Positions 985 through 50,052 of a DNA stretch of 64,000 nt are shown piece after piece. Positions within the stretch are counted from its first letter, which is position 1. Each line of letters opens with the position of its first letter. The notes under the pieces are model-generated. The model saw nothing but the letters and a program-made list of their open reading frames with translations. It did not search any database and was not told where the DNA came from. Source of the DNA: Escherichia coli (GTDB lineage: Bacteria; Pseudomonadota; Gammaproteobacteria; Enterobacterales; Enterobacteriaceae). The translations under genes and the position numbers were made by a program. The DNA lies in assembly GCF_024700885.2 (NCBI RefSeq), contig NZ_CP117016.1. The stretch is one strand, 5' to 3'.

Positions 985-2646
985 TTACACCCCGCTAAAT
1001 TCTTCCAGTTTCTGGCGGTGGCTGTCGCTTATATCAAAAGCAAAATCCTCATGCTCTGCCTGGAATGTACCAAACGCCATCAGCGCCGCCACGCTCGGGT
1101 CTATCTTGTTCGGTGATTTTTTCTTGTTCGGCTTGATATTGGCGTTCGCGTCACTCTGCATCACGACGTTACTCATCGACCAGGACAACACCGGATCGCC
1201 ACGATGCACAATCACCCTGCGGTTAACAAAAACTTCGAACGATTTCGCCGCCGGACTGAATCTGAGGTAGGTTTGCGGGAACGGCTCCACCTCAAAACCT
1301 GCCCCCTGTAATTGCGTTCTGAGATGCGTGGCGTTCCACGTATCAAAGCCCACCAGCCTGATATTAAATTTCTCCGCGTCCTGCATGATGTCATCTCTGA
1401 TCCGGTCGTAATCAATGCAGTCGCCAGGCGTTGTGCGTATCCAGCCTGCTTTAGCCCACTGACGATAGATGGCGCGGTTTTTATTGGCGGGGTTCTGTAG
1501 CTGAAATTCCGGCAGATAGTGACGGGAAACCAGCATAATGGTTTTACCGACCGGAAAGGCATAGCACACGCTGGAAATATCGCTGGTTGATGATAAGTCC
1601 AGCCCCGCGTAACACTCCTGGCCGTGTAAATCTTCCTCCGTGAACGTTCCGGCACACTCAGCCCATGCGCCGTTACCCATCCACGGGGTAGCCCCCTGGC
1701 ACCAGATATTAAATCGCTTTGTCATCATCTCCACCCACTGCGACGGAATACCCCGCGCTTTCTGGATGGTTGAGGCCAGTTTTTCACGATCGACGGAAAC
1801 ATCAATATTAGGGTTCGCCTTTATCCACATCGCCGGATCATCAACCTCGTTTTCGTCGTCCAGTTCGTAAATCAGTACAAAAATTGAATCGTTAACCTCT
1901 TCGCCGTCCAGGATCTGGCAGCAATAATCATAGTGCTGCTTACAGGCTGAAACGACGTTGCTGCCTGATGTGGTAATGGCAAATAACAGCCCTTCGGGAC
2001 GTGCGCCCATCCCCAGCTCAAGCGCGGAATAAACGCCGTTATCGGGGTGCAAGTGGTATTCGTCCACGATGGAAAGGCTGGGGTTTGTTCCCTCGATGGT
2101 TGCCGCTTTTGCTGCCAGCGGCTTTAACAGGCTGTTGCTTTTCGGGTGTATCACCTTATGCGCCTGAATATTCACCCGCCTGCGTAACGGTCGGGATAAA
2201 AGGCACATCTGACGCGCATCATCAAAGACGATCCGCGCCTGGTCACGGCTCACCGCTGCGGTGTAGATATCCTGCTGACCGTTCTCCATAATCAGAAACC
2301 AGTTAGCCAGAATCGCGGCGGTCGTGGATTTCGCATTTTTGCGCGGCACTTCGATAAAGGCGCTCGTGTATTTGCGCCGTCCGGTGGCCTTAACCTTAAA
2401 GCCGAGGATGCACGCAAAGGCGAACTGCTGCCACGGCTCCAGCTCAATGGGTCTGCCACGCATCGGTCCTTTTACGTGCGGGCACACCCTGGAAAAGGCA
2501 ATAAACCGCTCCACAACCTCACGATCGAACGTGTAAAGGGGGCTTTTAAGGTCCGAAAAGTACCGTTTAACGGCCTGTTTCAGCCGTTTACAGGCCGGAA
2601 TTTTGCCCGTTTTTACGTCTTCTGCGTACTTATTCCAGGCGGTCAA
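985..2646 (-). CDS. terL: Phage terminase large subunit
   Basis: 553-aa ORF with an N-terminal ATPase region and C-terminal nuclease-like region typical of Terminase_1 family; overlaps terS stop. Confidence 0.9.
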   Translation of the reverse strand: MTAWNKYAEDVKTGKIPACKRLKQAVKRYFSDLKSPLYTFDREVVERFIAFSRVCPHVKGPMRGRPIELEPWQQFAFACILGFKVKATGRRKYTSAFIEVPRKNAKSTTAAILANWFLIMENGQQDIYTAAVSRDQARIVFDDARQMCLLSRPLRRRVNIQAHKVIHPKSNSLLKPLAAKAATIEGTNPSLSIVDEYHLHPDNGVYSALELGMGARPEGLLFAITTSGSNVVSACKQHYDYCCQILDGEEVNDSIFVLIYELDDENEVDDPAMWIKANPNIDVSVDREKLASTIQKARGIPSQWVEMMTKRFNIWCQGATPWMGNGAWAECAGTFTEEDLHGQECYAGLDLSSTSDISSVCYAFPVGKTIMLVSRHYLPEFQLQNPANKNRAIYRQWAKAGWIRTTPGDCIDYDRIRDDIMQDAEKFNIRLVGFDTWNATHLRTQLQGAGFEVEPFPQTYLRFSPAAKSFEVFVNRRVIVHRGDPVLSWSMSNVVMQSDANANIKPNKKKSPNKIDPSVAALMAFGTFQAEHEDFAFDISDSHRQKLEEFSGV

Positions 2647-2986
2647 GCTCGTCCTCTTCTTCTGTTTCCGGTGGGTTTTTACGGCGGCTTATCGGGTCAA
2701 AACCGAGCAAGGAGGCCATTTTTATCATCACCCTTTCAGCGTCTGATTTCGCGCTTAATGCGGGGTTTCTGCTCTCGCCGCCCTGACTGTTAACAATGCT
2801 GAACCCGCGCGCCGCAAGGTCTGCGACGGCTTTCCGGTAAATGGAGTAGTTGACACAATACAGTTCCAGATTGCTCCAGTCGGCGGGGGTCAGGTCTCCC
2901 CGTTCCGCAAGCTGCCGCGATTTTTCCCGCCACTGCTTCACGGCGATGTCATCCAGGTAGGCGGGGGCTTTCGGTGGTCTTGCCAT
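2630..2986 (-). CDS. terS: Phage terminase small subunit (P27-like)
   Basis: 118-aa ORF immediately upstream of and overlapping terL; resembles P27-family small terminases with an acidic C-terminus. Confidence 0.7.
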   Translation of the reverse strand: MARPPKAPAYLDDIAVKQWREKSRQLAERGDLTPADWSNLELYCVNYSIYRKAVADLAARGFSIVNSQGGESRNPALSAKSDAERVMIKMASLLGFDPISRRKNPPETEEEDELDRLE

Positions 2987-3274: not shown

Positions 3275-3715
3275 TCATTCATCAGCGTCATACATCCAGT
3301 TATTGCGGTTAGCGGCCCGTTCTTCCTCTTCACGAAATCCACCTGCGGCACGCTTGCTTTTTGTTGCCGGATCAAGCCATTTCGTTTTCTGGTTATGACA
3401 CGCCTGGCACAATGGTTGATGGTTCCATTCGGGCCAGAAGAGAACATCATCACCGCCATTAATCGGGATAATGTGATCCACCACCACGGCGGGCGTATAT
3501 ATCCCCTTCTCAAGGCATCGCACGCATAACGGGTTTTTACTCAGATACATGGCGCGGTATTTGTCCCACTGTCTGGAATATCCACGCGCGCGGCGGTGTC
3601 CTCGTCTGGCATCCTCTGCACGCCATGCCGCCCGCCTGTGCTCCTCACACTTGCCGGATTTAACGCGCCTGTTACAGCCTGGTTCTGTGCATCGTCTTAA
3701 TGGTTGCCACGGCAT
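3275..3715 (-). CDS. HNH endonuclease (terminase-associated)
   Basis: 146-aa ORF with Cys pairs and the DHIIP...N..LC..CH..K HNH motif, positioned upstream of terS. Confidence 0.85.
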   Translation of the reverse strand: MPWQPLRRCTEPGCNRRVKSGKCEEHRRAAWRAEDARRGHRRARGYSRQWDKYRAMYLSKNPLCVRCLEKGIYTPAVVVDHIIPINGGDDVLFWPEWNHQPLCQACHNQKTKWLDPATKSKRAAGGFREEEERAANRNNWMYDADE

Positions 3716-4011
3716 CAGTACACCCCCACATCACGGTAAGCCGTCCAGAGTGCGCCTATCGTCATGGGTACGCGTGTTTTTGCGTTATCCGCGACAATCT
3801 GGCGATTTTCATACAGGTGAGCGATAAACATCATGCAGCCAATCTTTATGGCTGGCGTGAACTCCAGCCCGTCATCAAAGCGCCTGCCTATGTGTATCTG
3901 GCACGCCTCAAGCGATGCGGCAATGTATCCGCTGATTAACTGGTCTTCATCGTCGCCATCGATGCGGCAATGGAGTTTCACTTCTTCCAGGGTGATAAGT
4001 TCTTCTGTCAT
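3715..4011 (-). CDS. Head-tail connector protein (gp6-like)
   Basis: 98-aa ORF, MTEELITLEEVK... resembles phage gp6-like head-tail connector family; translationally coupled to neighbours. Confidence 0.65.
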   Translation of the reverse strand: MTEELITLEEVKLHCRIDGDDEDQLISGYIAASLEACQIHIGRRFDDGLEFTPAIKIGCMMFIAHLYENRQIVADNAKTRVPMTIGALWTAYRDVGVY

Positions 4012-4346
4012 TTTTCCGCGCCCTCACGACAAAGAATTTCAAGGCGTGTCCTGGCGGCATCCGGCAGCGGCTGCCCGATGATATTCAGTACACGCCCCGC
4101 CAGCGGCCCCGTACTGACCTTTATCCGGCTGGTGGCGTTGATGTCCTTCCGGTACCGTATCCAGATCCTTACGGTACCAATCGCCAGCTCTGCGCCCGAT
4201 GAAATGGCCTCCTTGCTGCTGACCATGTTCACGCTTGCCCAGAGTGTGTGACCGTCCTCCCACGTTTCGAGTATTTCGCCGGTTATATCCCTGGTCTGTT
4301 TCAGGGTCTGAATCGTTATCCTGTCACGCAGTCGCCCTATGTTCAT
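4008..4346 (-). CDS. Head-tail adaptor / head closure protein
   Basis: ORF 4008..4388; probable start MNIGRLRDRITIQ at 4346, directly after portal stop, typical N-terminus of head-tail joining proteins. Confidence 0.65.
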   Translation of the reverse strand: MNIGRLRDRITIQTLKQTRDITGEILETWEDGHTLWASVNMVSSKEAISSGAELAIGTVRIWIRYRKDINATSRIKVSTGPLAGRVLNIIGQPLPDAARTRLEILCREGAEK

Positions 4347-5554
4347 TCCGGTTTTTCTCCCTCGCTGATTTTTACTTCCTGTTTCCATGCCTGGCTGAAC
4401 TCATCACCACCATCACGCGGTGACAGACCTTCACGTTCGCGGGCTTCGTTCGGACACATAACGCCGGATTTGATGCCGCGCTCATAGGTGGCAAAGCGTT
4501 CGCCAGGTGTGGCCCGTAACAGGTCCGCGCTGTCAAACTCCACCTGATACCGGATACCAGGTACAGGCGAGGCCACCAGCAGGGCGTTTTTTATCTGCTG
4601 CTCAAAGTTCGCCAGCCACGGGCGCATCGTCATGGTGAGAAATGCGCGGCTTGCCTCGCTGAAATTGCTGTAGGTGCTGTTGCTGTATTCCTGCAAAAAA
4701 ATCGGCGAGACGTTGAACATTCGGGCGATGTCTTCAATGGTGAAGCGACGGGAGGCCAGCCATTCAGCATCCTGATTACTCATGCCCAGCTGCTGATAGC
4801 TCATACCCCCTTCAAGGATGGGCGTTTTTCCGGCGTTTCTGGCCCCTTTGTAGCGTTCCAGTGCGGCTAATGCCTGTTTGCCCTTCACGCCGTCCAGCCA
4901 TTCGCCTGACGTGATAACCCCTGCCGCCATCATGCCATCACGCATCACGCTCGCGCCGTGGCGTTGTTGGGCCAGCCCAAGCCCCAGCGATTCGCGGCAG
5001 ATGGTTACAGGTGAGCACCCCATAAAGCCGTCATCCGTGGAGTAACGAAGGTGAAGTACTTCCCACGGTAAATAGTTGCGGGTGTTTCCGGTGTAGGCGT
5101 CAGTGATGCAGTAGCGCCAGTTGTGTTCGCCTGTCTGCTCCACGTTCACCGACTGCGGCGGGTAAGGATGTAAAGCCGCCGGAAAACCATCACGCCCCCA
5201 CTGAATCACCGCATAAGCATTACCGTTTAACAGGCAGTGGCGGATCATCATTCGCTTAAACTGGTAGGGGGTTTGCCATGCGTTCGGGCGCTCGTTGAGG
5301 ATGTGATCGACCGGATGAGAATCAAGCCACTCGCGGGCCTCCTTCCCCTTCTCATTGCGTACCAGGTACAGGTAACACGGCATGGTAGCCACCGCCTCAG
5401 AGATGACCGTCACGGCGTTCATGACGGCGGGCAGTGATTCCGCTGTCCCCGATGATACGTACTCACCCGCCCCCGTGTTCGATGTGCCAGCCAGCGCCAT
5501 AAATTCATCCAGCGTCATGCTGCGCTGCTCTTTTTTTCTTCTGAAAGGCCACAT
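4343..5554 (-). CDS. Portal protein (HK97 family)
   Basis: 403-aa ORF sitting between the prohead protease and adaptor genes, resembling HK97-family portal proteins. Confidence 0.85.
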   Translation of the reverse strand: MWPFRRKKEQRSMTLDEFMALAGTSNTGAGEYVSSGTAESLPAVMNAVTVISEAVATMPCYLYLVRNEKGKEAREWLDSHPVDHILNERPNAWQTPYQFKRMMIRHCLLNGNAYAVIQWGRDGFPAALHPYPPQSVNVEQTGEHNWRYCITDAYTGNTRNYLPWEVLHLRYSTDDGFMGCSPVTICRESLGLGLAQQRHGASVMRDGMMAAGVITSGEWLDGVKGKQALAALERYKGARNAGKTPILEGGMSYQQLGMSNQDAEWLASRRFTIEDIARMFNVSPIFLQEYSNSTYSNFSEASRAFLTMTMRPWLANFEQQIKNALLVASPVPGIRYQVEFDSADLLRATPGERFATYERGIKSGVMCPNEAREREGLSPRDGGDEFSQAWKQEVKISEGEKPE

Positions 5555-5555
5555 A

Positions 5556-6128
5556 TCACACCCCCGCTAAATCCACCCACCAGCGGCGATTATCCGCACG
5601 CGGCATTTTTTCGGGGTGCTGCTCATACAGGGAACGGCGGGCCAGCTCCACGCCGGAATCGGGGTAAGCCGGTACCGATGTAACGGTAATTTCGTACAGT
5701 TCCGCCACCAGCACGGTGCGCACGCATGGATCTGTTGTGGTATCCCATACATCCTTACGGGAGCGAAAGCCAAAGCTCATCCCCGAGATGTCCCCACGCT
5801 TAACCAGTTCGATAACGTCGCGCCCTGTACTGGTATCCGGTGGGGTCAGTTCAAAGCGTAACCCTGTTTCGTCCTCTTCCAGTTTCAGCGTGCCGGAACG
5901 GGTGCGCCCCAGTAACATGCTGTGGTCATGCTCATACAGGCCGCGAACGTCATTACCCGCCGCAAGCCACTCAGTAAACGCCCCCCGCTGGAATTTTTCG
6001 TAAAACTCCCCCCATAGCAGTTCTGAAAGCTTATCCCAGCGAACAACGTAGCCCGTCAGCGTACCGGCTCCGCTGGTAGTGATTTCCGATGACCGGATTT
6101 CCATACTCTTCATAATTTTTTCACCCAT
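5556..6128 (-). CDS. Prohead maturation protease (HK97 family)
   Basis: 190-aa ORF immediately downstream of the capsid gene, resembling HK97 prohead protease. Confidence 0.85.
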   Translation of the reverse strand: MGEKIMKSMEIRSSEITTSGAGTLTGYVVRWDKLSELLWGEFYEKFQRGAFTEWLAAGNDVRGLYEHDHSMLLGRTRSGTLKLEEDETGLRFELTPPDTSTGRDVIELVKRGDISGMSFGFRSRKDVWDTTTDPCVRTVLVAELYEITVTSVPAYPDSGVELARRSLYEQHPEKMPRADNRRWWVDLAGV

Positions 6129-6167: not shown

Positions 6168-7325
6168 TTAATCGTCGTCCTGTGGCAGTTCCAGAATCTT
6201 GATCGCGTTCGAATCCACCACGCCACCGCCTAAATATTTCTGCGTGAAAATTTTGATGAAGCCCGGCTCTGTGAGGTTGTCCGGTCTGGTGCGAACACCT
6301 GTTTCGTGATCAACAATGTAGTAACCGCGTTTGAAGTCACCCAGGGCAATAACGTTATCCGGCATAAACTCCAGATATTCGACCGGAAGGCCCAGTAACG
6401 TATCAGGATCACCCGCCTGTAAACGGTCGCGCCAGATGTAATCACCGTTCGCGTTCTTCACCTTCTGAAGTTTTGCCGCCGTCGTGGAGTTAACCACCCA
6501 GACCGCGTTTTTGCGGTATTTTTTACGTAATGCAAATTTCAGGTCGATCAGCGGGTCCGCAGATGTCCACGCCAGAGATTCGGAAGGTTTAATTACCTGC
6601 AACGTACCAAAATCACGCTCTTTGTCGTTCTTCTCTGCACGGGGTACGGATAAAAAGCCTTTTGCTTTTTTGTCACCGTCGCCCACAACCAGATCGCTTT
6701 CTTCGGTTTCCGTGAAGTTGTCGCCAATCTCGCCCGTCAGCCATGAAAGGATGTCCACATCGGAAAAATCCACGATTTCCTGCGTGGTGCGCGGGTACGC
6801 ATAGACCGGATACAGCTTAATGCTCACCTCGTTAATCTGCGGGGTGCTGGTCTGTTCGCGTGCCTTACCCTCTTCACCGTGGTTAACGGTCGCACCGCCA
6901 GCGGAAACAAGCTGCTTAAACTCGTTGCTGCTGATTTTCTTCACGGTACAGATGCGGCGCATGGTGGATTCATCCGTCAGCATTCGCATGATTTCGGTGT
7001 TCAGTTCGGGGATAACGGTATAACCACCATCAGCGGGAACGCCTGTACTTAATGCGCGGGTTTCACCTGTCAGAATGTAGTGACGTAGTTCGGCTGGGTC
7101 AGTGGTCTGACTGCTTTTACCTGGCTTGCTGCGCTCTTCGTCTGCAATGGCTTCAAGGCGGGAAATGTCTTTATCGAGGGATTCAGCTTTAGCGCGTAAT
7201 TCGTCAAATTTTGCGCCCTCAGCATCGTTAAGACTGCGGTTTTCTTTTTCCGCGTTCTCCAGCATGTCGCGCATCTGATTTTTAATGGCGGTTTTCTGCT
7301 GGCGTAATTCGATTATTCTCGGCAT
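6168..7325 (-). CDS. Major capsid protein (HK97 fold) with N-terminal delta/scaffold domain
   Basis: 385-aa ORF with a coiled-coil-rich N-terminus followed by HK97-like capsid region. Confidence 0.85.
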   Translation of the reverse strand: MPRIIELRQQKTAIKNQMRDMLENAEKENRSLNDAEGAKFDELRAKAESLDKDISRLEAIADEERSKPGKSSQTTDPAELRHYILTGETRALSTGVPADGGYTVIPELNTEIMRMLTDESTMRRICTVKKISSNEFKQLVSAGGATVNHGEEGKAREQTSTPQINEVSIKLYPVYAYPRTTQEIVDFSDVDILSWLTGEIGDNFTETEESDLVVGDGDKKAKGFLSVPRAEKNDKERDFGTLQVIKPSESLAWTSADPLIDLKFALRKKYRKNAVWVVNSTTAAKLQKVKNANGDYIWRDRLQAGDPDTLLGLPVEYLEFMPDNVIALGDFKRGYYIVDHETGVRTRPDNLTEPGFIKIFTQKYLGGGVVDSNAIKILELPQDDD

Positions 7326-7897: not shown

Positions 7898-8308
7898 TCA
7901 GAACGGAATATCATCACCGTAAGGGTCATCGCCTCCCGCTGGTGGCTGATTACCCTGTGTGCCTGTGGTCTTGCGTCGGCTCCCACCAGGACGTGCCGCA
8001 CGGGCACTGATTACGCTGTCTGCAATAACCTGATAACCCTGCCGCGTTTCCCCGTTCTGTCCGGTCCACTGGCTGACCTGCATCGTGCCGGATACGCTGG
8101 CAACGTCGCCTTTTTGATGTTTAGCCAGGAAGTCGGCCTGCTTACCAAATGCGATGACCGATAGCCATAACGTCGCCTGTCCATCCTGTGCCTGGCTGCA
8201 TGGCAGCGATACCGCCATACGCGCCAGCGTCATCGGTGTACCCTTGCTGGTCTGTTTTACCTGCGGGTCGTCCACCAGCCGCCCGTAAGCTGCTATCTGT
8301 GCTGTCAT
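7898..8308 (-). CDS. ssb: Single-stranded DNA-binding protein (SSB-like)
   Basis: 136-aa ORF with OB-fold-like core, Gly/Pro-rich linker and C-terminal DDIPF tail as in bacterial SSB. Confidence 0.75.
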   Translation of the reverse strand: MTAQIAAYGRLVDDPQVKQTSKGTPMTLARMAVSLPCSQAQDGQATLWLSVIAFGKQADFLAKHQKGDVASVSGTMQVSQWTGQNGETRQGYQVIADSVISARAARPGGSRRKTTGTQGNQPPAGGDDPYGDDIPF

Positions 8309-8871: not shown

Positions 8872-10626
8872 TTATAAAAACGCGTCGCACTCGTCTGTTG
8901 TTATTGCGTTAGTCTGCGTTACTCCCTTAACTTTCCGCGTAATATATTCATGTCCGTAAACTTTCGCGGCTGGCTTCATAGCCTTGCCAAAGTCATTTAC
9001 GTTTAGCGGTTTGCTCCTGCCTGCGTACGCCATAAACGCCAGATAGACGCGGTAAAGGCTGTTTCTGGTCGTGTACTTCACTGAATCGCCACCGCCGCCC
9101 ATCATCAGGCCGCGTGCTTCCTCCAGAAAATTCAGGAACTGGCAAAACTCAATAACCGGATCCGTCTGTTGCTTTATTGCCAGAGCTTCATCACCGTCAC
9201 GCTGTTCCAGTAGTAAAGCCCGTGCCTTCTCAGGGTCGGTAAAGTTCGCCAGCAATCGGCGGATAATGACAGGGATTTCAGCCGCGATCTTTTCCGGTAG
9301 CTCCCTGTCTTTTTCGGCCTCACTGACGATATTGTCGAAACGGAAAATCACGCGACGACGTGCCACACCTCCGGCCCGTTCGGTGAATATCATCGGGTTA
9401 TTGTTGGTCGCCAGCACCACCGCCCTGATTACCGCCGTGAAACGCTTTTCGTATTTCGGGTTAATTTCCACGGGGTCACCGCCCGTGATTTTCTTGATGC
9501 CCGTTCCTTCGCCTGTATATTTCGGCTGGTCAGCCAGGACGATAAGACGACTCCCGACAACCTGCGCACGTCCACCAGCATCATCAAGCGATGTCATTTC
9601 AGCGCTTACCGTGTTCTGTTTCCCTGCCAGAAGGCTGGCTATGTGTGTGAATGTACTTTTACCGCTCCCGCCGTCTCCGGTGGCCTCAATAAACATCTGC
9701 CAGTCGTACCGGTTCGCCATAATCATGTACAGCGCGGCACATATACGCATCATCTTGCGCGGGTCTTTTCCGGCTGCGTGCTCAAGCCATTTATGAAAGT
9801 TTGGCGCGTTATCGCGGATGTTCTCCCCTGGTGCTGGTGGCGTGTACTCAATGCCGTTGTGCGTGGTGATCCAGTTCTCCGGCGTGTGCGGGGAAAATTC
9901 CCCCGTTTTCAGGTCAAGCGCACCATTGGCGAACGGCAACAAATCGCCGGACGGCTCGCCCATTGGTTCGGCAATAACTTTTAACGCTTCCACGGCGTTA
10001 TTGATTACGCGCTTGCTGAAAGTGGCCCTGTGCTCTGAATAGATCGCCACCATTTCGCGGCTAAGTTCCATTGTGCTGACCGGACACCATACCCCGCCGC
10101 GCCATACGTGAACGATTTCACTTTCAGGATGTACGCAAACGCCATCAAAGCGATCGGCAAGCAGTTGCGCGCGCTCACTGTCCGCCATCTGCGAAAGTTG
10201 CGCCTTTTGCTTTACCGGAAGCTCAATGACCAGACCATCAGAAAGATTCTGGCGCTCACGGGCCAGATATTCGCGCCAGTTCTCCACCTTCTGACCGTGC
10301 ATACCATCAGGGTAAAAATTTGCATCCTGTACGCCTGCCGCCGCCAGCTTCTGACCAATCGCCTTTATCATTACTGGCGCAAGATATCCGGCCCTGAATA
10401 TGCGCACGGATTTTCTGCCTTCCGGCACAATTTGCAGCTTATCCAGTTCGGATAACTGCTGCTCCCCAAGCCACACAGGAGGCTCATTATCTCCGGCCAT
10501 ACGCGCGTCATGTTCCTGCCATTGTTTTGCGTGTGACCAGGCATCACTACCCGCAAAAATAATGACTTCTGTTTCTTTGTGTTTTATGCCGCGTGACTGC
10601 TGTTTTACGTTCGGTGCCAGTTTCAT
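8872..10626 (-). CDS. Replication initiator: phage/plasmid primase with D5/P4-type NTPase (helicase) domain
   Basis: 584-aa ORF with Walker A GDGGSGKST and downstream motifs typical of P4-family primase C-terminal domain; followed by iterons. Confidence 0.8.
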   Translation of the reverse strand: MKLAPNVKQQSRGIKHKETEVIIFAGSDAWSHAKQWQEHDARMAGDNEPPVWLGEQQLSELDKLQIVPEGRKSVRIFRAGYLAPVMIKAIGQKLAAAGVQDANFYPDGMHGQKVENWREYLARERQNLSDGLVIELPVKQKAQLSQMADSERAQLLADRFDGVCVHPESEIVHVWRGGVWCPVSTMELSREMVAIYSEHRATFSKRVINNAVEALKVIAEPMGEPSGDLLPFANGALDLKTGEFSPHTPENWITTHNGIEYTPPAPGENIRDNAPNFHKWLEHAAGKDPRKMMRICAALYMIMANRYDWQMFIEATGDGGSGKSTFTHIASLLAGKQNTVSAEMTSLDDAGGRAQVVGSRLIVLADQPKYTGEGTGIKKITGGDPVEINPKYEKRFTAVIRAVVLATNNNPMIFTERAGGVARRRVIFRFDNIVSEAEKDRELPEKIAAEIPVIIRRLLANFTDPEKARALLLEQRDGDEALAIKQQTDPVIEFCQFLNFLEEARGLMMGGGGDSVKYTTRNSLYRVYLAFMAYAGRSKPLNVNDFGKAMKPAAKVYGHEYITRKVKGVTQTNAITTDECDAFL

Positions 10627-12016: not shown

Positions 12017-12182
12017 CGCTCAGGAATACGCAGACCTCACCGCTAAGGCGTTTAAGTAAGCCGATGATTGCCCCTGATTCGCTGTCGGTCATCATGCCAG
12101 GGTAATCCTCTGCCAGTGCGCAAATAACTTCGATTTGGTGGGCGCGTTCTGCTGCCTGTTGTAGTGTGATTTCCTGGCTCAT
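11952..12182 (-). CDS. Hypothetical small protein (accessory operon gene 2)
   Basis: 76-aa ORF, start overlaps the stop of the upstream gene. Confidence 0.45.
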   Translation of the reverse strand: MSQEITLQQAAERAHQIEVICALAEDYPGMMTDSESGAIIGLLKRLSGEVCVFLSDEQERRTLISNEKKCGGVHVQ

Positions 12183-12379
12183 AAGCCTACCCCCTGACGA
12201 ATACGGGCAGCAAATACCATCACGCAGCCAGCCGGAGATTGCTGGCGTGCTTCCTGTTCGCTGGTGGCCTCAATGGTAATCACGCGCGGTTGTGCCGTGC
12301 TCAGGGCGATAAAACGCCAGATGTATTTATTCAGGTTGTGCGAGTCCCGCCCTTGCGGGTGTGTGGTATGATTTCTCAT
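12179..12379 (-). CDS. Hypothetical small protein, first gene of leftward operon (Cro-like position)
   Basis: 66-aa ORF starting MRNHTT at 12379; the 340-aa ORF in the track is read-through across the regulatory region. Confidence 0.4.
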   Translation of the reverse strand: MRNHTTHPQGRDSHNLNKYIWRFIALSTAQPRVITIEATSEQEARQQSPAGCVMVFAARIRQGVGL

Positions 12380-12476
12380 AGCTACCTCGATACTTTCGCT
12401 ATCGTTGGTGGTTAGAAGCCCGGTTAGTGTTAGCGCACTGCCGGGTTTCGTCGTTTCTGCACCTTGCGCCAACAAG

Positions 12477-12528
12477 GTGTTGAACACCAATTTAAACCCA
12501 GGTGTTAAACACGTCAAGTGTTGAACAC
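12477..12528. promoter_or_regulatory. Three palindromic operators GTGTTnAACAC between divergent promoters
   Basis: gtgttgaacac (12477..12487), gtgttaaacac (12502..12512), gtgttgaacac (12518..12528) in the gap between divergent gene sets. Confidence 0.6.
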
Positions 12529-12578
12529 TTATTTTTTTTCCTGCATACTGCATTTGTTTTTTATGAGGGGTACACCAC

Positions 12579-12758
12579 ATGGCGACAAAAGCGGTAAACG
12601 CAAAATCACAAACCGTTGCGGCAAGGGTTCCGCATGAAGTTATGAACAATGTTGAGGCGGTAAAAATGCCTGGCGAAAGTACGGGGCAATTTGTTACTGC
12701 GGCATTAAAACGAGAAGTTGAATATCGCCAGCGGCGCAAGGCCAAAGAACCAGAGTAA
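12579..12758 (+). CDS. Putative ribbon-helix-helix transcriptional regulator
   Basis: 59-aa ORF (below the track cutoff) with a Shine-Dalgarno-like gagggg upstream; beta-strand/helix/helix pattern typical of Arc/MetJ/CopG family; adjacent to operators. Confidence 0.5.
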   Translation: MATKAVNAKSQTVAARVPHEVMNNVEAVKMPGESTGQFVTAALKREVEYRQRRKAKEPE

Positions 12759-12800
12759 TCACCATCAGCGCCGTGGTGTAAGGTATTACGGCGCATTGCT

Positions 12801-12989
12801 ATGCAGGACAACACAATGACCGATAAAGAATTGACCAAAACATTATCACCGGCACGGAAAAGACGGCGCAGAAAGATAGAGCATGAATCAGAAAGATTCG
12901 CGCCATGTGCTTTTGCCCTTGAGCAATTCCTTAAAGAGTACAGGGAAAAGCGCTCATTGCAGGTATGGCAACGAACTGAACCAGACTGA
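12801..12989 (+). CDS. Hypothetical small basic protein
   Basis: 62-aa ORF downstream of the RHH gene on the same strand, followed by a terminator. Confidence 0.4.
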   Translation: MQDNTMTDKELTKTLSPARKRRRRKIEHESERFAPCAFALEQFLKEYREKRSLQVWQRTEPD

Positions 12990-13083
12990 TTGCATTGCCC
13001 ACCAGCCTGATAACGGCTATCATCCCCGTGCTTATGTTTGGGATCACACACACAAACGGCGCAGCGGGTTATCTGTTCAGAAA

Positions 13084-13113
13084 GGCGGCTCCATTTCGGG
13101 GCCGCTTTTTTTA
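13084..13113 (+). terminator. Rho-independent terminator of rightward regulatory transcript
   Basis: Hairpin gcggctcc-attt-cggggccgc followed by TTTTTTT. Confidence 0.55.
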
Positions 13114-13258
13114 TACCTGAAAAACCCCAATTTTGTTGTTTTTCAGTTTCACCAGGGCGAACGAATCCCCGCCCACGTTCTGGCGTATATTCAATCTTCA
13201 TGGTTATAGCTCTGTGTTCAGATGATTGATGTGTGGCGGCTGCGTGCCGCCAGCGTGA

Positions 13259-13528
13259 TTAATGAACTGCCTTGCAGCTATCCTTCCAGGCCAGAACCTC
13301 GGATAAAGACCAGCCAACGGAACGACCGCCAAGTTTACGACGTGATGGGAATTGTCCGGCCTTTTCCAGGCGGTAGCGACACGTACGGCTAAGGCCGGTT
13401 AGTTTTTCGCATTCTTTTTCACGTATAAACCGATCAGTGCTTAACACTATTGCCCCCCTTTCGTTTCTTAAAGAGTCATCAGGTGTCTTATTGTGTCGTA
13501 TTGTTCCCGCTAGAGTGATGAATGGCAA
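13259..13528 (-). CDS. alpA: AlpA-family phage transcriptional regulator / excisionase-like
   Basis: 89-aa ORF; C-terminal region ...LTGLSRTCRYRLEKAGQFPSRRKLGGRSVGWSLSEVLAW matches AlpA-family pattern; adjacent to int; true start may be downstream. Confidence 0.8.
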   Translation of the reverse strand: MPFITLAGTIRHNKTPDDSLRNERGAIVLSTDRFIREKECEKLTGLSRTCRYRLEKAGQFPSRRKLGGRSVGWSLSEVLAWKDSCKAVH

Positions 13529-13812: not shown

Positions 13813-15042
13813 TTATTTTCTTCTGGCTACGGGTAGCGTGGTTACGTTTTCATGTGTTCCCGCCAGTATCCCTAACCGCTCCGTCCACATATCCAGCGCA
13901 TTGCGTTTCGCATCCAGATAACGGGAATGATTATAAACTCGCTGCATTCCTGGCATCTGGTGGCCTGTAAGCTGCTCCACGACATGCGGATCAACGCCTA
14001 AATCGTTCAGCATGGTTGTAAAGGTGCGCCGGATGTCATGCAGTGACCAGTGAGGGTGATTAAGCCTCCTGTACGCTAATCTTCCATACTGCGATACGCT
14101 GGCCTCCTGTTTCACTTCCCCCAGCAATAAGCCCGTGTGCCTGTTCTGCTCCACCAGCTGCGTGACGAACGGCAGGATCGCTTCCGGTATGGGCCGGAAT
14201 ATTGCGACCTTCGTTTTGCTGTGCTCCTTCGGAACGGTCCATAGCATTTCCGTAAAATCCCACTCCCCGATCTCCGATAACCTCAGTTCTACCGTTCTGG
14301 CTCCGAAGACAATCAGGAGGCGGATTAACGCGACGTAGTAAGGGGAGAATATTTTTTTGTCCAGTGCCTGCAATAATTCGCCAAGTTCTTTGTTACTTAA
14401 GACACGTTCGCTTATATCCGGTTTTTTCCCAACGTCCGCAACGTTCAGATCGTCCAGAACGTTGCTGATTGCATAGCGCCGCCTACGGCAGAACTTAAGC
14501 GCCTGTTTGCACGCCTGTAGCACGAATCCGGCAGTAACAGGCGTTCGCTTTGCCACCTGGTCAAAACAGGCCAGCCAGTGCCGTAGCTCGCATTTATCCA
14601 GCGGCATAGCACCAATCTGCTGTATTACGTGATTATTAAGTCGCCTTTTCAGGGCGATATAATCCACGCGGTTTTCCTTTACGTAATACTCAAGCCAGTA
14701 GGTGAGCGCATCGCCAACCGTTACGGGCTTTAACGCTTCCTGTACGGTGTAATTCATCTCATGACGTGGATTTTTCCCCTCAGCCAGCCATGTGCGACAC
14801 TGTGCGGCTTTTTCCCTGGCTGCTTTCAGGCTCAGATCAGGATAACTTCCCAGCTTAATGCGTTCGGGTCGTGTCTCCCTTCCCGTTCCGGCCCTGTATG
14901 TGAAATACCAGGTCAATTTCCCTGATGTTAAATATTTCACGCTCAGGTTTCCGCCATCACTATAAAACGTGTTTTTCTCCGCTGGCTTACCATGAAGTTT
15001 CCTTAGCAAGGTATCGCTCAGTTTGTTCATTGCTCTGCTCAC
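13813..15042 (-). CDS. int: Tyrosine-type site-specific integrase (P4-like)
   Basis: 409-aa ORF with catalytic-domain motifs (HDIRRTF, GHQ, VYNHSRY) at the island end next to the chromosomal junction. Confidence 0.92.
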   Translation of the reverse strand: MSRAMNKLSDTLLRKLHGKPAEKNTFYSDGGNLSVKYLTSGKLTWYFTYRAGTGRETRPERIKLGSYPDLSLKAAREKAAQCRTWLAEGKNPRHEMNYTVQEALKPVTVGDALTYWLEYYVKENRVDYIALKRRLNNHVIQQIGAMPLDKCELRHWLACFDQVAKRTPVTAGFVLQACKQALKFCRRRRYAISNVLDDLNVADVGKKPDISERVLSNKELGELLQALDKKIFSPYYVALIRLLIVFGARTVELRLSEIGEWDFTEMLWTVPKEHSKTKVAIFRPIPEAILPFVTQLVEQNRHTGLLLGEVKQEASVSQYGRLAYRRLNHPHWSLHDIRRTFTTMLNDLGVDPHVVEQLTGHQMPGMQRVYNHSRYLDAKRNALDMWTERLGILAGTHENVTTLPVARRK

Positions 15043-15067: not shown

Positions 15068-15144
15068 TGACTACACCAGTGACTACACCGATCGTTGCAC
15101 AAAGGGCTACAACGTGAAACAAGCTGGAACAAGGAAAATCACAA
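15068..15144. repeat. Right-end repeat block, copy of 38..104
   Basis: tgactacaccagtgactacaccg (15068..15090) then phased AACAA at 15118, 15128, 15140. Confidence 0.6.
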
Positions 15145-15215: not shown

Positions 15216-16124
15216 AATGCTGTTATTCTTAACCCGCTGGTGCAACACATGGTCCGCTGGCGTGTGCCGCGTGTACTGGCAGTGTCGATTTTGATGACCA
15301 TCATCGTGATGGCGATGGTGTTGCTGTTAGCTTATCTGGGTTCCGCACTCAACGAGTTGACGCGGACGTTACCGCAATATCGCAACTCTATTATGACGCC
15401 GCTGCAAGCTCTTGAACCGTTGTTGCAACGCGTAGGGATTGACGTCTCAGTTGACCAACTGGCGCATTACATTGATCCGAACGCGGCGATGACGTTGCTC
15501 ACCAACTTATTGACGCAGTTATCTAATGCCATGTCATCAATCTTTTTATTGCTGCTGACGGTGCTGTTTATGCTGCTCGAAGTGCCACAATTGCCCGGAA
15601 AATTTCAGCAAATGATGGCGCGTCCGGTTGAAGGGATGGCGGCGATTCAGCGTGCGATTGACAGTGTGTCTCATTATCTGGTGCTGAAAACAGCCATCAG
15701 CATCATCACCGGCCTGGTCGCCTGGGCGATGCTCGCCGCACTCGATGTTCGCTTCGCTTTTGTCTGGGGATTGCTGGCCTTTGCGCTTAATTACATCCCG
15801 AATATTGGTTCAGTTCTCGCGGCAATCCCCCCTATTGCTCAGGTACTGGTGTTTAATGGCTTCTACGAAGCGTTGCTGGTGCTGGCGGGATATCTGCTGA
15901 TTAATCTGGTCTTCGGCAATATTCTGGAGCCACGCATCATGGGGCGTGGGCTGGGGCTTTCCACATTGGTGGTATTTTTGTCGTTGATTTTTTGGGGATG
16001 GTTGTTAGGACCGGTGGGTATGCTGCTTTCCGTGCCGTTGACAATTATTGTCAAAATTGCGCTTGAACAAACAGCGGGAGGTCAAAGCATCGCCGTTCTG
16101 TTAAGCGATCTCAATAAAGAGTGA
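15216..16124 (+). pseudogene. tqsA: tqsA (AI-2 exporter) truncated at 5' end by island insertion
   Basis: Reading frame matches TqsA from about residue 47 ([13 protein letters not shown]...) to the native stop; in-frame stop at 15213..15215 and island sequence upstream; N-terminal 46 codons and promoter absent from window. Confidence 0.8.

Positions 16125-47355: not shown

Positions 47356-50052
<2,697 letters not shown>

Follow-up and report, generated by a model that had tools for sequence, protein, structure and literature searches.

Organization of the locus

The window, by which we mean the whole stretch of E. coli DNA that was analyzed, is 64 kb long. Its positions 1 to ~15,220 are a capsid-forming phage-inducible chromosomal island (cf-PICI) that has a packaging module of the EcCIEDL933 type and is inserted in tqsA. 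The features of the island on which our analysis draws are the following.

985..2646, minus strand: large terminase (TerL); PHROG 9, E = 2e-179
2630..2986, minus strand: small terminase (TerS), P27 family; PHROG 83, E = 3e-39
3275..3715, minus strand: HNH endonuclease (packaging cofactor); PHROG 144, E = 8e-45
3715..4011, minus strand: Ad1, gp6-like head-tail adaptor, 98 aa; PHROG 40 and PF05135
4008..4346, minus strand: Hc1, head-closure or head-completion "stopper," 112 aa; PHROG 25, PF05521, and PDB entry 2KZ4
4343..5554, minus strand: portal protein (403 aa), on which the stack is built; PHROG 12, E = 2e-115
5556..6128, minus strand: HK97-family prohead protease; PHROG 80, E = 2e-67
6168..7325, minus strand: HK97-fold major capsid protein (MCP); PHROG 10, E = 3.5e-88; near-identical to PDB entry 9GYI, E = 6e-255
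8872..10626, minus strand: island primase/replicase; PHROG 864, E = 1e-175
13259..13447, minus strand: AlpA-like regulator/excisionase; PHROG 2790, E = 2.5e-17
13813..15042, minus strand: tyrosine integrase; PHROG 1, E = 7e-72

The cf-PICI packaging gene set is represented by eight of eight genes in the expected order on the minus strand, and the nine packaging ORFs are all intact, with translational coupling between them. AlpA and the primase/replicase are both present and make up a regulation and replication module of the cf-PICI kind. The island occupies ~15.2 kb between tqsA fragments, with the integrase at one end, and its length lies inside the cf-PICI size range of ~10–18 kb. The insertion site was assigned to tqsA from the annotation of the identical MLI114 locus and from the junction sequences; the right junction is near 15216–15224, and the left junction lies ~35–45 bp before window position 1. 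A 23-bp direct repeat (38–60 and 15068–15090) was considered as the att core and dropped because the tqsA fragments put the true junctions outside it, indicating that the repeats are more likely arm-type sites of the integrase. From 15.3 to 64 kb, the window is core chromosome, pntAB to ydhK, 100% identical to E. coli MLI114. Besides MLI114, genomes of ST1193 carry the island.

No island ORF matches a tail or lysis PHROG, the island contains no ORF of tape-measure size, and the other ORFs tested match families that are not tail families or whose function is unknown. We also found no co-resident prophage or tail genes elsewhere in the 64-kb window. The statement in the first-pass annotation that the island supplies no tail was thus correct for the island and for the rest of the window alike. 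Besides the packaging genes, the primase, and the integrase, the identical MLI114 record contains no annotated island ORF longer than 136 aa. A 340-aa ORF at 12179–13201 in our ORF list has no annotation in that record.

Identity and boundaries of the neck genes

Ad1 matches the PHROG 40 family "head-tail adaptor Ad1" (E = 8e-36) and, through its residues 6–85, most of the family HMM of Pfam PF05135, "gp6-like head-tail connector" (E = 6.4e-12). Hc1 matches PHROG 25, "head closure Hc1" (E = 7e-35), and aligns end to end with Pfam PF05521 (E = 2e-23, model positions 1–106 of 106). Its own structure is PDB entry 2KZ4, deposited as "Putative head-tail adaptor," which is 100% identical over 112/112 residues. 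In the naming of He et al., Ad1 is the "connector" and Hc1 the "adaptor." Start and stop codons overlap at each of the boundaries, as ATGA between portal and Hc1, ATGA between Hc1 and Ad1, and TGATG between Ad1 and HNH. We confirmed that Ad1 and Hc1 are both genuine genes of the minus strand and that their translation is coupled.

An adaptor and a connector had previously been placed at 3715–4388. Both genes stand, but the end at 4388 overshoots, as it follows the longest ORF; the real end is at 4346. We dropped the 126-aa ORF that begins at the first ATG (4388) and preferred a model of 112 aa from the ATG at 4346 because the PF05521 match starts only at residue 15 of the longest ORF, PGAP gives Hc1 as 112 aa in hundreds of genomes, the PDB construct has that same length, and the ATG at 4346, which overlaps the stop codon of the portal gene as ATGA, is preceded by a Shine-Dalgarno sequence, GAGGGAG.

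The C-terminal Ad1 motif ALW..YRDVGVY is invariant in the cf-PICI Ad1 sequences of alignment A2 (4/4) and is retained with single substitutions (P or I) across 78 IMG/VR Ad1 sequences. When Ad1 was searched as a single sequence against the PDB with phmmer, the match to HK97 gp6 (PDB entry 3JVO) was non-significant (E = 0.39); pairwise BLASTP with HK106 gp6 gave 24% identity (E = 2e-5). A match of profile A2 to 3JVO was discounted as circular, since HK106 gp6 is itself in the alignment. The Hc1 profile matched SPP1 gp16 (PDB entries 2KCA, 5A20, 5A21, and 7Z4W) at E = 2.5e-6. No cf-PICI portal/Ad1/Hc1 complex was present in the PDB copy searched.

Predicted tail capture by the island-encoded neck

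Hc1 is 96.4% (108/112) and Ad1 99.0% (97/98) identical to the corresponding proteins of EcCIEDL933, the prototype cf-PICI of E. coli O157:H7 EDL933. The two Hc1 proteins differ by four substitutions (D20A, I21M, V42I, and A97V), and the two Ad1 proteins differ by one residue. This closeness to an experimentally tested pair supports the earlier proposal that the two proteins form the interface for the docking of helper tails. In EcCIEDL933, mutation of each packaging-module gene led to loss of transfer, mutation of the homologues in the helper HK106 left island transfer unaffected, and the tails of cf-PICIs are supplied by the helper (Alqurainy et al., 10.1101/2022.09.08.507074).

Swaps of adaptor and connector among cf-PICIs, the EcCIEDL933 pair included, switch capture between HK106 and HK022 tails, and the recipient range is set by the captured tail (He et al., 10.1101/2025.02.11.637232). 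The connector swap that had been suggested as a check has therefore been carried out by others, with the outcome predicted, and it bears out the claim that the neck sequence decides which tail is captured and hence the host range. Tail-less, non-infective particles, which had been put forward as counter-evidence, are the normal released product of cf-PICIs (He et al., 10.1101/2025.02.11.637232) and have no bearing against docking. The tail-docking role of the pair is already published on near-identical proteins and so is not new. Small capsids of its own and transfer only with helper tails are reported for EcCIEDL933 and are predicted for the present allele.

Together, these data favor a reading to which we assign a probability of roughly 0.9, namely that the locus is a cf-PICI with an island-made Ad1/Hc1 collar that captures foreign tails, Hc1 being most likely the selective part. 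Upon induction, the island would make its own small HK97-fold capsids, and its DNA would be packaged by the island HNH, TerS, and TerL proteins. A ring of Ad1, predicted by homology to be a dodecamer, would bind the portal clip, and a distal ring of Hc1 on Ad1 would close the channel and offer a docking surface to a pre-assembled siphovirus tail. Because the island has no tail genes, particles would be infective only after capture of a tail from a helper or bystander phage, and that tail would then determine which cells receive the island. In the neck of JBD30, the portal is a 12-mer, the adaptor a 12-mer, and the stopper a 6-mer, and the tail interface is the stopper (PMC11445458); we infer ring stoichiometry and order in the neck of this island from such homology. 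Adaptor and connector had earlier been treated as one interface. Both do belong to the neck, but they do not appear to be physically equivalent, as only Hc1 would present a tail-binding face if SPP1 gp15/gp16 and JBD30 are taken as guides.

Hc1 as the probable selective element

Within the pair, the selective element is most likely Hc1, a view based on sequence comparison, because Hc1 resembles the Hc1 of the tail donor and moves between islands as a single-gene cassette. The island Hc1 shares 47% identity (117 bits) with HK106 Hc1 (gp7), whereas portal, TerL, Ad1, and MCP share only 23–29% with their HK106 counterparts. Scored against HK106 gp7 and HK022 gp9, Hc1 gave 113 and 60 bits for EcCIEDL933, 91 and 82 bits for EcCIGN02175 (sequence taken from an identical island copy in strain GN06667), and 64 and 103 bits for the KpCIDSM30104 type. 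Locus L093 we take to be KpCIDSM30104, on the strength of an identity fingerprint and of its genome, GCA_000742135.1, being that of the K. pneumoniae type strain. On the basis of three islands and two phages, the score pattern agrees in 3/3 cf-PICIs with the published tail usage, which is HK106 only for EcCIEDL933, both for EcCIGN02175, and HK022 only for KpCIDSM30104 (10.1101/2025.02.11.637232). By the same token, the tails captured by this island should be of the HK97/HK106 type rather than the HK022 type.

Among 80 related IMG/VR islands, grouped by a portal identity of at least 95%, Hc1 is the sole hypervariable gene, with a median identity of 54% compared with 84% for Ad1 and ~97–98% for MCP, protease, portal, TerS, and TerL. 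E. coli Evo1 carries a related island inside an HK97-like prophage; Hc1 of this nested island is 62% identical to the Hc1 of the prophage, against 25–38% for the other shared head proteins (terS, 28%; HNH, 42%). The stretch of Hc1 that discriminates HK106 from HK022 in this island comprises the C-terminal 46 residues (67–112; 59% identity versus 29%), whereas the Klebsiella-type Hc1 owes most of its discriminating similarity to the N-terminal part. One "docking epitope" at the C terminus would account for this island but not for the Klebsiella type, and we rejected it as a general rule; as the discriminating regions differ, the comparison points to no single docking epitope.

We regard it as unlikely that Ad1 has an equal or the main part in tail choice, with the pair co-evolving as a unit and the likeness of Hc1 to phage Hc1 reflecting ancestry only. 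Such a role would be compatible with the published swaps, in which adaptor and connector were always moved together and both of which He et al. call divergent (adaptors 35–50% and connectors 61–83% identity; 10.1101/2025.02.11.637232), and both proteins also differ when this island is compared with the EcCIGN02175 lineage (Hc1, 38% identity; Ad1, 60–61%). However, the island Ad1 is equally far (22–25% identity) from the Ad1 proteins of HK106 and HK022, which are 99% identical to each other although the tails differ. Since the two phages share Ad1 but differ in Hc1, in their gp10-family proteins, and in their terminators, Hc1 appears to travel with the tail in phages. In the IMG/VR islands, Hc1 clusters with only 46% identity between them are accompanied by Ad1 proteins that are 97% identical, Ad1 having been compared within and between clusters on the last 90 residues because full-length comparison is confounded by longest-ORF N-terminal extensions. 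Furthermore, the adaptor has no tail interface in solved siphovirus necks (PMC11445458).

The gp10-family and terminator proteins of HK106 and HK022 are only 27–30% identical, and the island encodes neither. This would suit an arrangement in which the island neck proteins merely seal the head and an extra helper neck protein of the HK97 gp10 family is the true specificity determinant, which we consider quite improbable. Both proteins would come with the tail anyway, and altering island-side genes alone re-targets tails (10.1101/2025.02.11.637232), so specificity resides on the side of the island as well.

Finally, a decayed prophage remnant that has lost its tail and lysis genes and keeps its neck genes as relics without a current role is highly implausible: although the head genes are all phage-derived and PGAP labels them as generic phage proteins, the element is compact (15.2 kb) and has the PICI hallmarks int, alpA, primase, PerC, and SSB, the nine packaging ORFs are intact and coupled as described above, 354 complete E. 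coli genomes have the 674-bp neck region intact and at least 95% identical, dozens of isolates from unrelated sources share the entire 15.3-kb island at ~100% identity, and the near-identical EcCIEDL933 is experimentally mobile (10.1101/2022.09.08.507074).

Returning to the island-made collar with Hc1 as its selective part, we consider the odds about even for a stronger proposal, according to which tail choice in cf-PICIs resides essentially in Hc1 alone, as a horizontally swappable single-gene cassette mimicking the head-closure protein of the tail donor, and Hc1-less islands borrow the Hc1 of the helper. Hc1 is absent from some islands (E. coli UMNF18, D8, and EC416; IMG/VR loci L031, L071, and L072). 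If the proposal is true, such islands would dock through an Ad1-Hc1 interface with the borrowed protein, a second mode of tail piracy; tail compatibility, and hence the transfer range of a cf-PICI, would be readable from the similarity of its Hc1 to that of resident or environmental phages; and this island would use tails of the HK97/HK106 kind.

The spread of cf-PICIs between species is possible because tail-less capsids can join the tails of different phages; whether a given tail fits is decided by the adaptor/connector pair, which acts as the coupling. This principle is already established, and the locus adds to it a natural EcCIEDL933-type coupling allele at another chromosomal site and in clinical E. 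coli lineages. Our comparisons suggest that the similarity of Hc1 to phage Hc1 may serve as a simple sequence-based predictor of tail compatibility, which could help in predicting gene flow mediated by satellites or in designing chimeric particles for delivery.

Comparison with known systems

EcCIEDL933 is the closest known system, with packaging proteins 96.4–100% identical to those of this island (portal, 99.0%; MCP, 99.2%; TerS, 100%) and AlpA and SSB at 100 and 98.5% identity, respectively. Both islands have the gene order MCP, protease, portal, Hc1, Ad1, HNH, small ORF, TerS, and TerL. They differ in the insertion site, which is tqsA here and the phoQ-roxA intergenic region for EcCIEDL933, their integrases being 91% identical, and in the replication protein, which is a 584-aa primase here and a 710-aa DUF927 protein in EcCIEDL933 (32% identity).

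The pairs of EcCIGN02175 and KpCIDSM30104, which are the experimentally swapped cassettes, have the same architecture, role, and Pfam families as the pair described here. Their Hc1 proteins are 38 and 37% identical to that of this island, respectively, and Ad1 is 61% identical in both.

HK97 and HK106, the latter being the tail donor used experimentally for EcCIEDL933, have neck proteins of the same families, gp6 (Ad1) and gp7 (Hc1). Over its full length, Hc1 is 48% (HK97) and 47% (HK106) identical to the island protein, whereas Ad1 is only ~24% identical. The order of the neck genes is inverted: in the phages, MCP is followed by Ad1 and then Hc1, and in the island, the portal is followed by Hc1 and then Ad1. 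The phages go on with genes for gp10-family, terminator, and tail proteins, none of which the island has. SPP1 gp15/gp16, lambda gpW/gpFII, and the JBD30 adaptor and stopper share the layout of portal, adaptor ring, stopper ring, and tail, but they are distant in sequence and come from complete phages that make their own tails.

SaPIs, P4, PLE, and non-capsid-forming PICIs are likewise mobile islands that depend on a helper and carry int, alpA, and primase modules. These classical satellites, however, re-model helper capsids and use helper neck proteins, having no portal, Ad1, or Hc1 of their own, and the genes for these three proteins are among the markers by which SatelliteFinder tells cfPICI from PICI (PMC10085698).

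Architecture and setting of the island

Window positions 1-15.2 kb hold a compact mobile element encoded on the minus strand. E. coli MLI114 (NZ_CP117013.1) is 100% identical to the window over its full length; in that record tqsA is split by the element, the left junction lying a few tens of bases ahead of window position 1 and the right one near 15216-15224. The 15.3-64 kb portion is core chromosome (pntAB, then the uid, mal, and rsx operons, to ydhK), in which no prophage was found. Within rsxC, imperfect internal tandem repeats of ~96 bp, roughly 90% identical, occur at 49580-50005; they are ordinary for rsxC and have no bearing on the neck genes.

Genes of the island. Each packaging protein is followed by its identity to the counterpart in EcCIEDL933, the prototype capsid-forming PICI (cf-PICI), and by the median identity to the cf-PICI EcCIGN02175 across 80 IMG/VR loci with a portal at least 95% identical to that of EcCIGN02175.
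13813-15042, minus, integrase
13259-13447, minus, AlpA-like regulator
between AlpA-like regulator and primase, minus, run of small ORFs
8872-10626, minus, primase
7898-8308, minus, SSB
after SSB and ahead of the packaging module, minus, PerC-like regulator
6168-7325, minus, major capsid protein (MCP), first gene of the packaging module; 99.2%; 97.6%
5556-6128, minus, prohead protease; 97.4%; 97.8%
4343-5554, minus, portal; 99.0%; 97.3%
4008-4346, minus, Hc1, 112 aa; 96.4% (108/112); 54.1%
3715-4011, minus, Ad1, 98 aa; 99.0% (97/98); 83.8%
3275-3715, minus, HNH; 99.3%; 91.2%
between HNH and TerS, minus, 60-aa ORF
2630-2986, minus, TerS; 100%; 98.1%
985-2646, minus, TerL; 98.7%; 97.5%
after TerL, end of the packaging module, minus, 93-aa ORF

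No tail or lysis family matches were found among the island ORFs, which bears out the earlier statement that the island supplies no tail. All cf-PICI criteria testable from sequence were observed (size, int/alpA/primase, Proteobacterial packaging-gene order, no tail or lysis genes), and on these features we classify the element as a capsid-forming PICI. A 23-bp direct repeat, TGACTACACCAGTGACTACACCG, a tandem of GACTACACC, lies just within each island end (38-60 and 15068-15090), and similar, TTAACTACACC-type copies occupy equivalent positions in EcCIEDL933; the repeats probably serve as arm-type sites for integrase binding, not as the att core. A 340-aa ORF (12179-13201, minus) has no annotated gene in identical genomes, where the only PGAP calls are an Icd-like protein of 66 aa (12179-12379), an Icd-like pseudogene, and a small YlcI/YnfO gene on the plus strand (12579-12758); the regulatory region appears decayed or rearranged here compared with FORC_069 and EDL933.

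Identity and gene models of Ad1 and Hc1

The first-pass annotation had placed an adaptor and a connector at 3715-4388, a 674-bp region present at ≥95% identity in 354 of 5,426 complete E. coli genomes, chromosomal every time. Both genes were confirmed. For the 98-aa ORF, the family hits are PHROG 40, "head-tail adaptor Ad1" (E=8e-36), and the Pfam family "gp6-like head-tail connector", PF05135 (E=6e-12). For the second ORF, they are PHROG 25, "head closure Hc1" (E=7e-35), and PF05521, the latter aligned along its whole length (E=2e-23). The end at 4388 needed a 42-nt correction: it marks where the longest ORF has its first ATG. We placed the true start at 4346, since in that ORF the PF05521 match begins at residue 15, the PGAP gene model has 112 aa, the resulting protein of 112 aa is 100% identical to the PDB 2KZ4 chain ("Putative head-tail adaptor"), and a GAGGGAG ribosome-binding site precedes a start whose ATGA overlaps the portal stop codon. 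Overlaps of 1-4 nt at portal/Hc1, Hc1/Ad1, and Ad1/HNH are typical of translationally coupled morphogenetic genes. The PDB copy searched held no cf-PICI portal-Ad1-Hc1 complex, only an MCP (9GYI) and the isolated Hc1 (2KZ4).

Published evidence for the docking interface

Gene-by-gene mutation of the EcCIEDL933 packaging module abolished transfer for all but one gene, a hypothetical gene whose mutant showed severely reduced transfer; mutating the homologous genes of the helper phage HK106 killed the phage and kept island transfer, and mutating HK106 tail genes abolished both (Alqurainy et al., 10.1101/2022.09.08.507074). DNA-filled capsids without tails are released by cf-PICIs and join free tails of different phages and species. 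EcCIEDL933 capsids take up tails of HK106 but not of phage HK022, and supplying an adaptor/connector-deleted island with the pair from KpCIDSM30104, EcCIGN02175, or EcCIEDL933 switched the infective tail between HK022 and HK106, both genes being moved jointly (He et al., 10.1101/2025.02.11.637232). There, "adaptor" denotes the PF05521 protein (Hc1) and "connector" the PF05135 protein (Ad1); our identities between EcCIEDL933 and EcCIGN02175 (Hc1 39-40%, Ad1 60%) reproduced the published 40% and 61%.

The proposal that the pair forms the tail-docking interface and sets tail choice is thus supported by published swaps, and the connector swap suggested as its check had already switched tail usage; tail-less, non-infective particles, named as a refutation, are in fact the normal intermediate (10.1101/2025.02.11.637232). 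The docking mechanism is experimentally established for near-identical proteins and the finding is therefore already known, both inference and experiment being contained in the results of He et al. and Alqurainy et al.

Hc1 as the candidate docking face

We put at about one half the probability that Hc1 alone, mimicking the Hc1 of the tail donor, sets and predicts tail compatibility, with islands without Hc1 docking otherwise; if true, this would refine the established model modestly but usefully. In solved siphovirus necks, a portal 12-mer is followed by an adaptor 12-mer and a stopper 6-mer, the latter forming the tail interface (PMC11445458), and our Hc1-sequence profile matched the SPP1 head-completion stopper gp16 (E=2.5e-6). 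Five independent sequence observations point to Hc1 as the docking face, in agreement with this homology.

The island Hc1 is 47% identical to that of HK106 (117 bits, E=2e-40), and portal, TerL, Ad1, and MCP only 23-29%. Between HK106 and HK022, Ad1 is 99% identical, Hc1 28%, the gp10-family protein 28%, and the terminator 30%, placing the phages' own head-tail mosaic joint between Ad1 and Hc1. HK022 (locus L005, 5545-6309) carries a truncated 78-aa HK97/HK106-type gp7 (64 aa of it 89% identical to HK106 gp7), a small ORF, and then its working Hc1, a full-length, divergent second copy (gp9), which looks like the scar of a head/tail module exchange exactly at Hc1.

Hc1 bit scores against HK106 gp7 and HK022 gp9, with reported tail usage.
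This window: 117, 60
EcCIEDL933: 113, 60; HK106 only
EcCIGN02175: 91, 82; both
KpCIDSM30104-type: 64, 103; HK022 only

Reported usage matches the Hc1 scores across the three islands and two phages compared. Ad1 cannot tell HK106 from HK022, its identity to the phage Ad1 being 22-24% in either case. The discriminating Hc1 similarity sits in differing segments among Hc1 types. The KpCIDSM30104 locus (L093) was identified by its identity fingerprint (35%/60% and 49%/84% here; published 35%/63% and 50%/83%) and, as a second basis, by GCA_000742135.1, which we take to be the K. pneumoniae type strain.

Among the 80 IMG/VR loci, Hc1 stood out as the variable gene, forming seven clusters at <80% identity, compared with one for Ad1. 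Identity between the two largest Hc1 clusters is 46%, yet the neighbouring Ad1 proteins are 97% identical, indicating that Hc1 is swapped as a single-gene cassette. Where portals are near-identical, the HNH gene that directly follows Ad1 splits into two groups by identity to EcCIGN02175 (~66% or ~90-100%), which suggests a second recombination-prone cassette adjoining the neck genes.

A nested island and islands without Hc1

In E. coli Evo1 (L101, NZ_CP101915.1, 16021-33295), a related cf-PICI is nested in terL of an HK97-like prophage that keeps complete head and tail modules; the N-terminal terL piece adjoins the island integrase and the C-terminal piece the island terL, a flank pattern also seen in UMNF18 and EC416. 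Island and host-prophage Hc1 are 62% identical (135 bits), HNH endonucleases 42%, and terS, portal, protease, MCP, and Ad1 25-38%, the fifth observation that points to Hc1. Such an integrated satellite would disable prophage packaging, leaving the prophage as a potential tail donor.

Some otherwise complete cf-PICIs lack Hc1, with Ad1 directly after the portal stop: E. coli UMNF18 (L007, 5001-6507), D8 (L008, 4913-6422), EC416 (L100, 3910-5416), and IMG/VR loci L031, L071, and L072. These would need a helper head-closure protein or another way to dock tails. A cfPICI with one core component missing is "Type B" (de Sousa et al.); we found no functional discussion of cf-PICIs without Hc1 in the literature.

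Comparison with the prototype EcCIEDL933

The packaging proteins of EcCIEDL933 are nearly those of the island, four residues separating the two Hc1 proteins. The elements differ in integration site (tqsA for the island, phoQ-roxA for EcCIEDL933); their integrases are 91% identical, and their replication proteins 32%.
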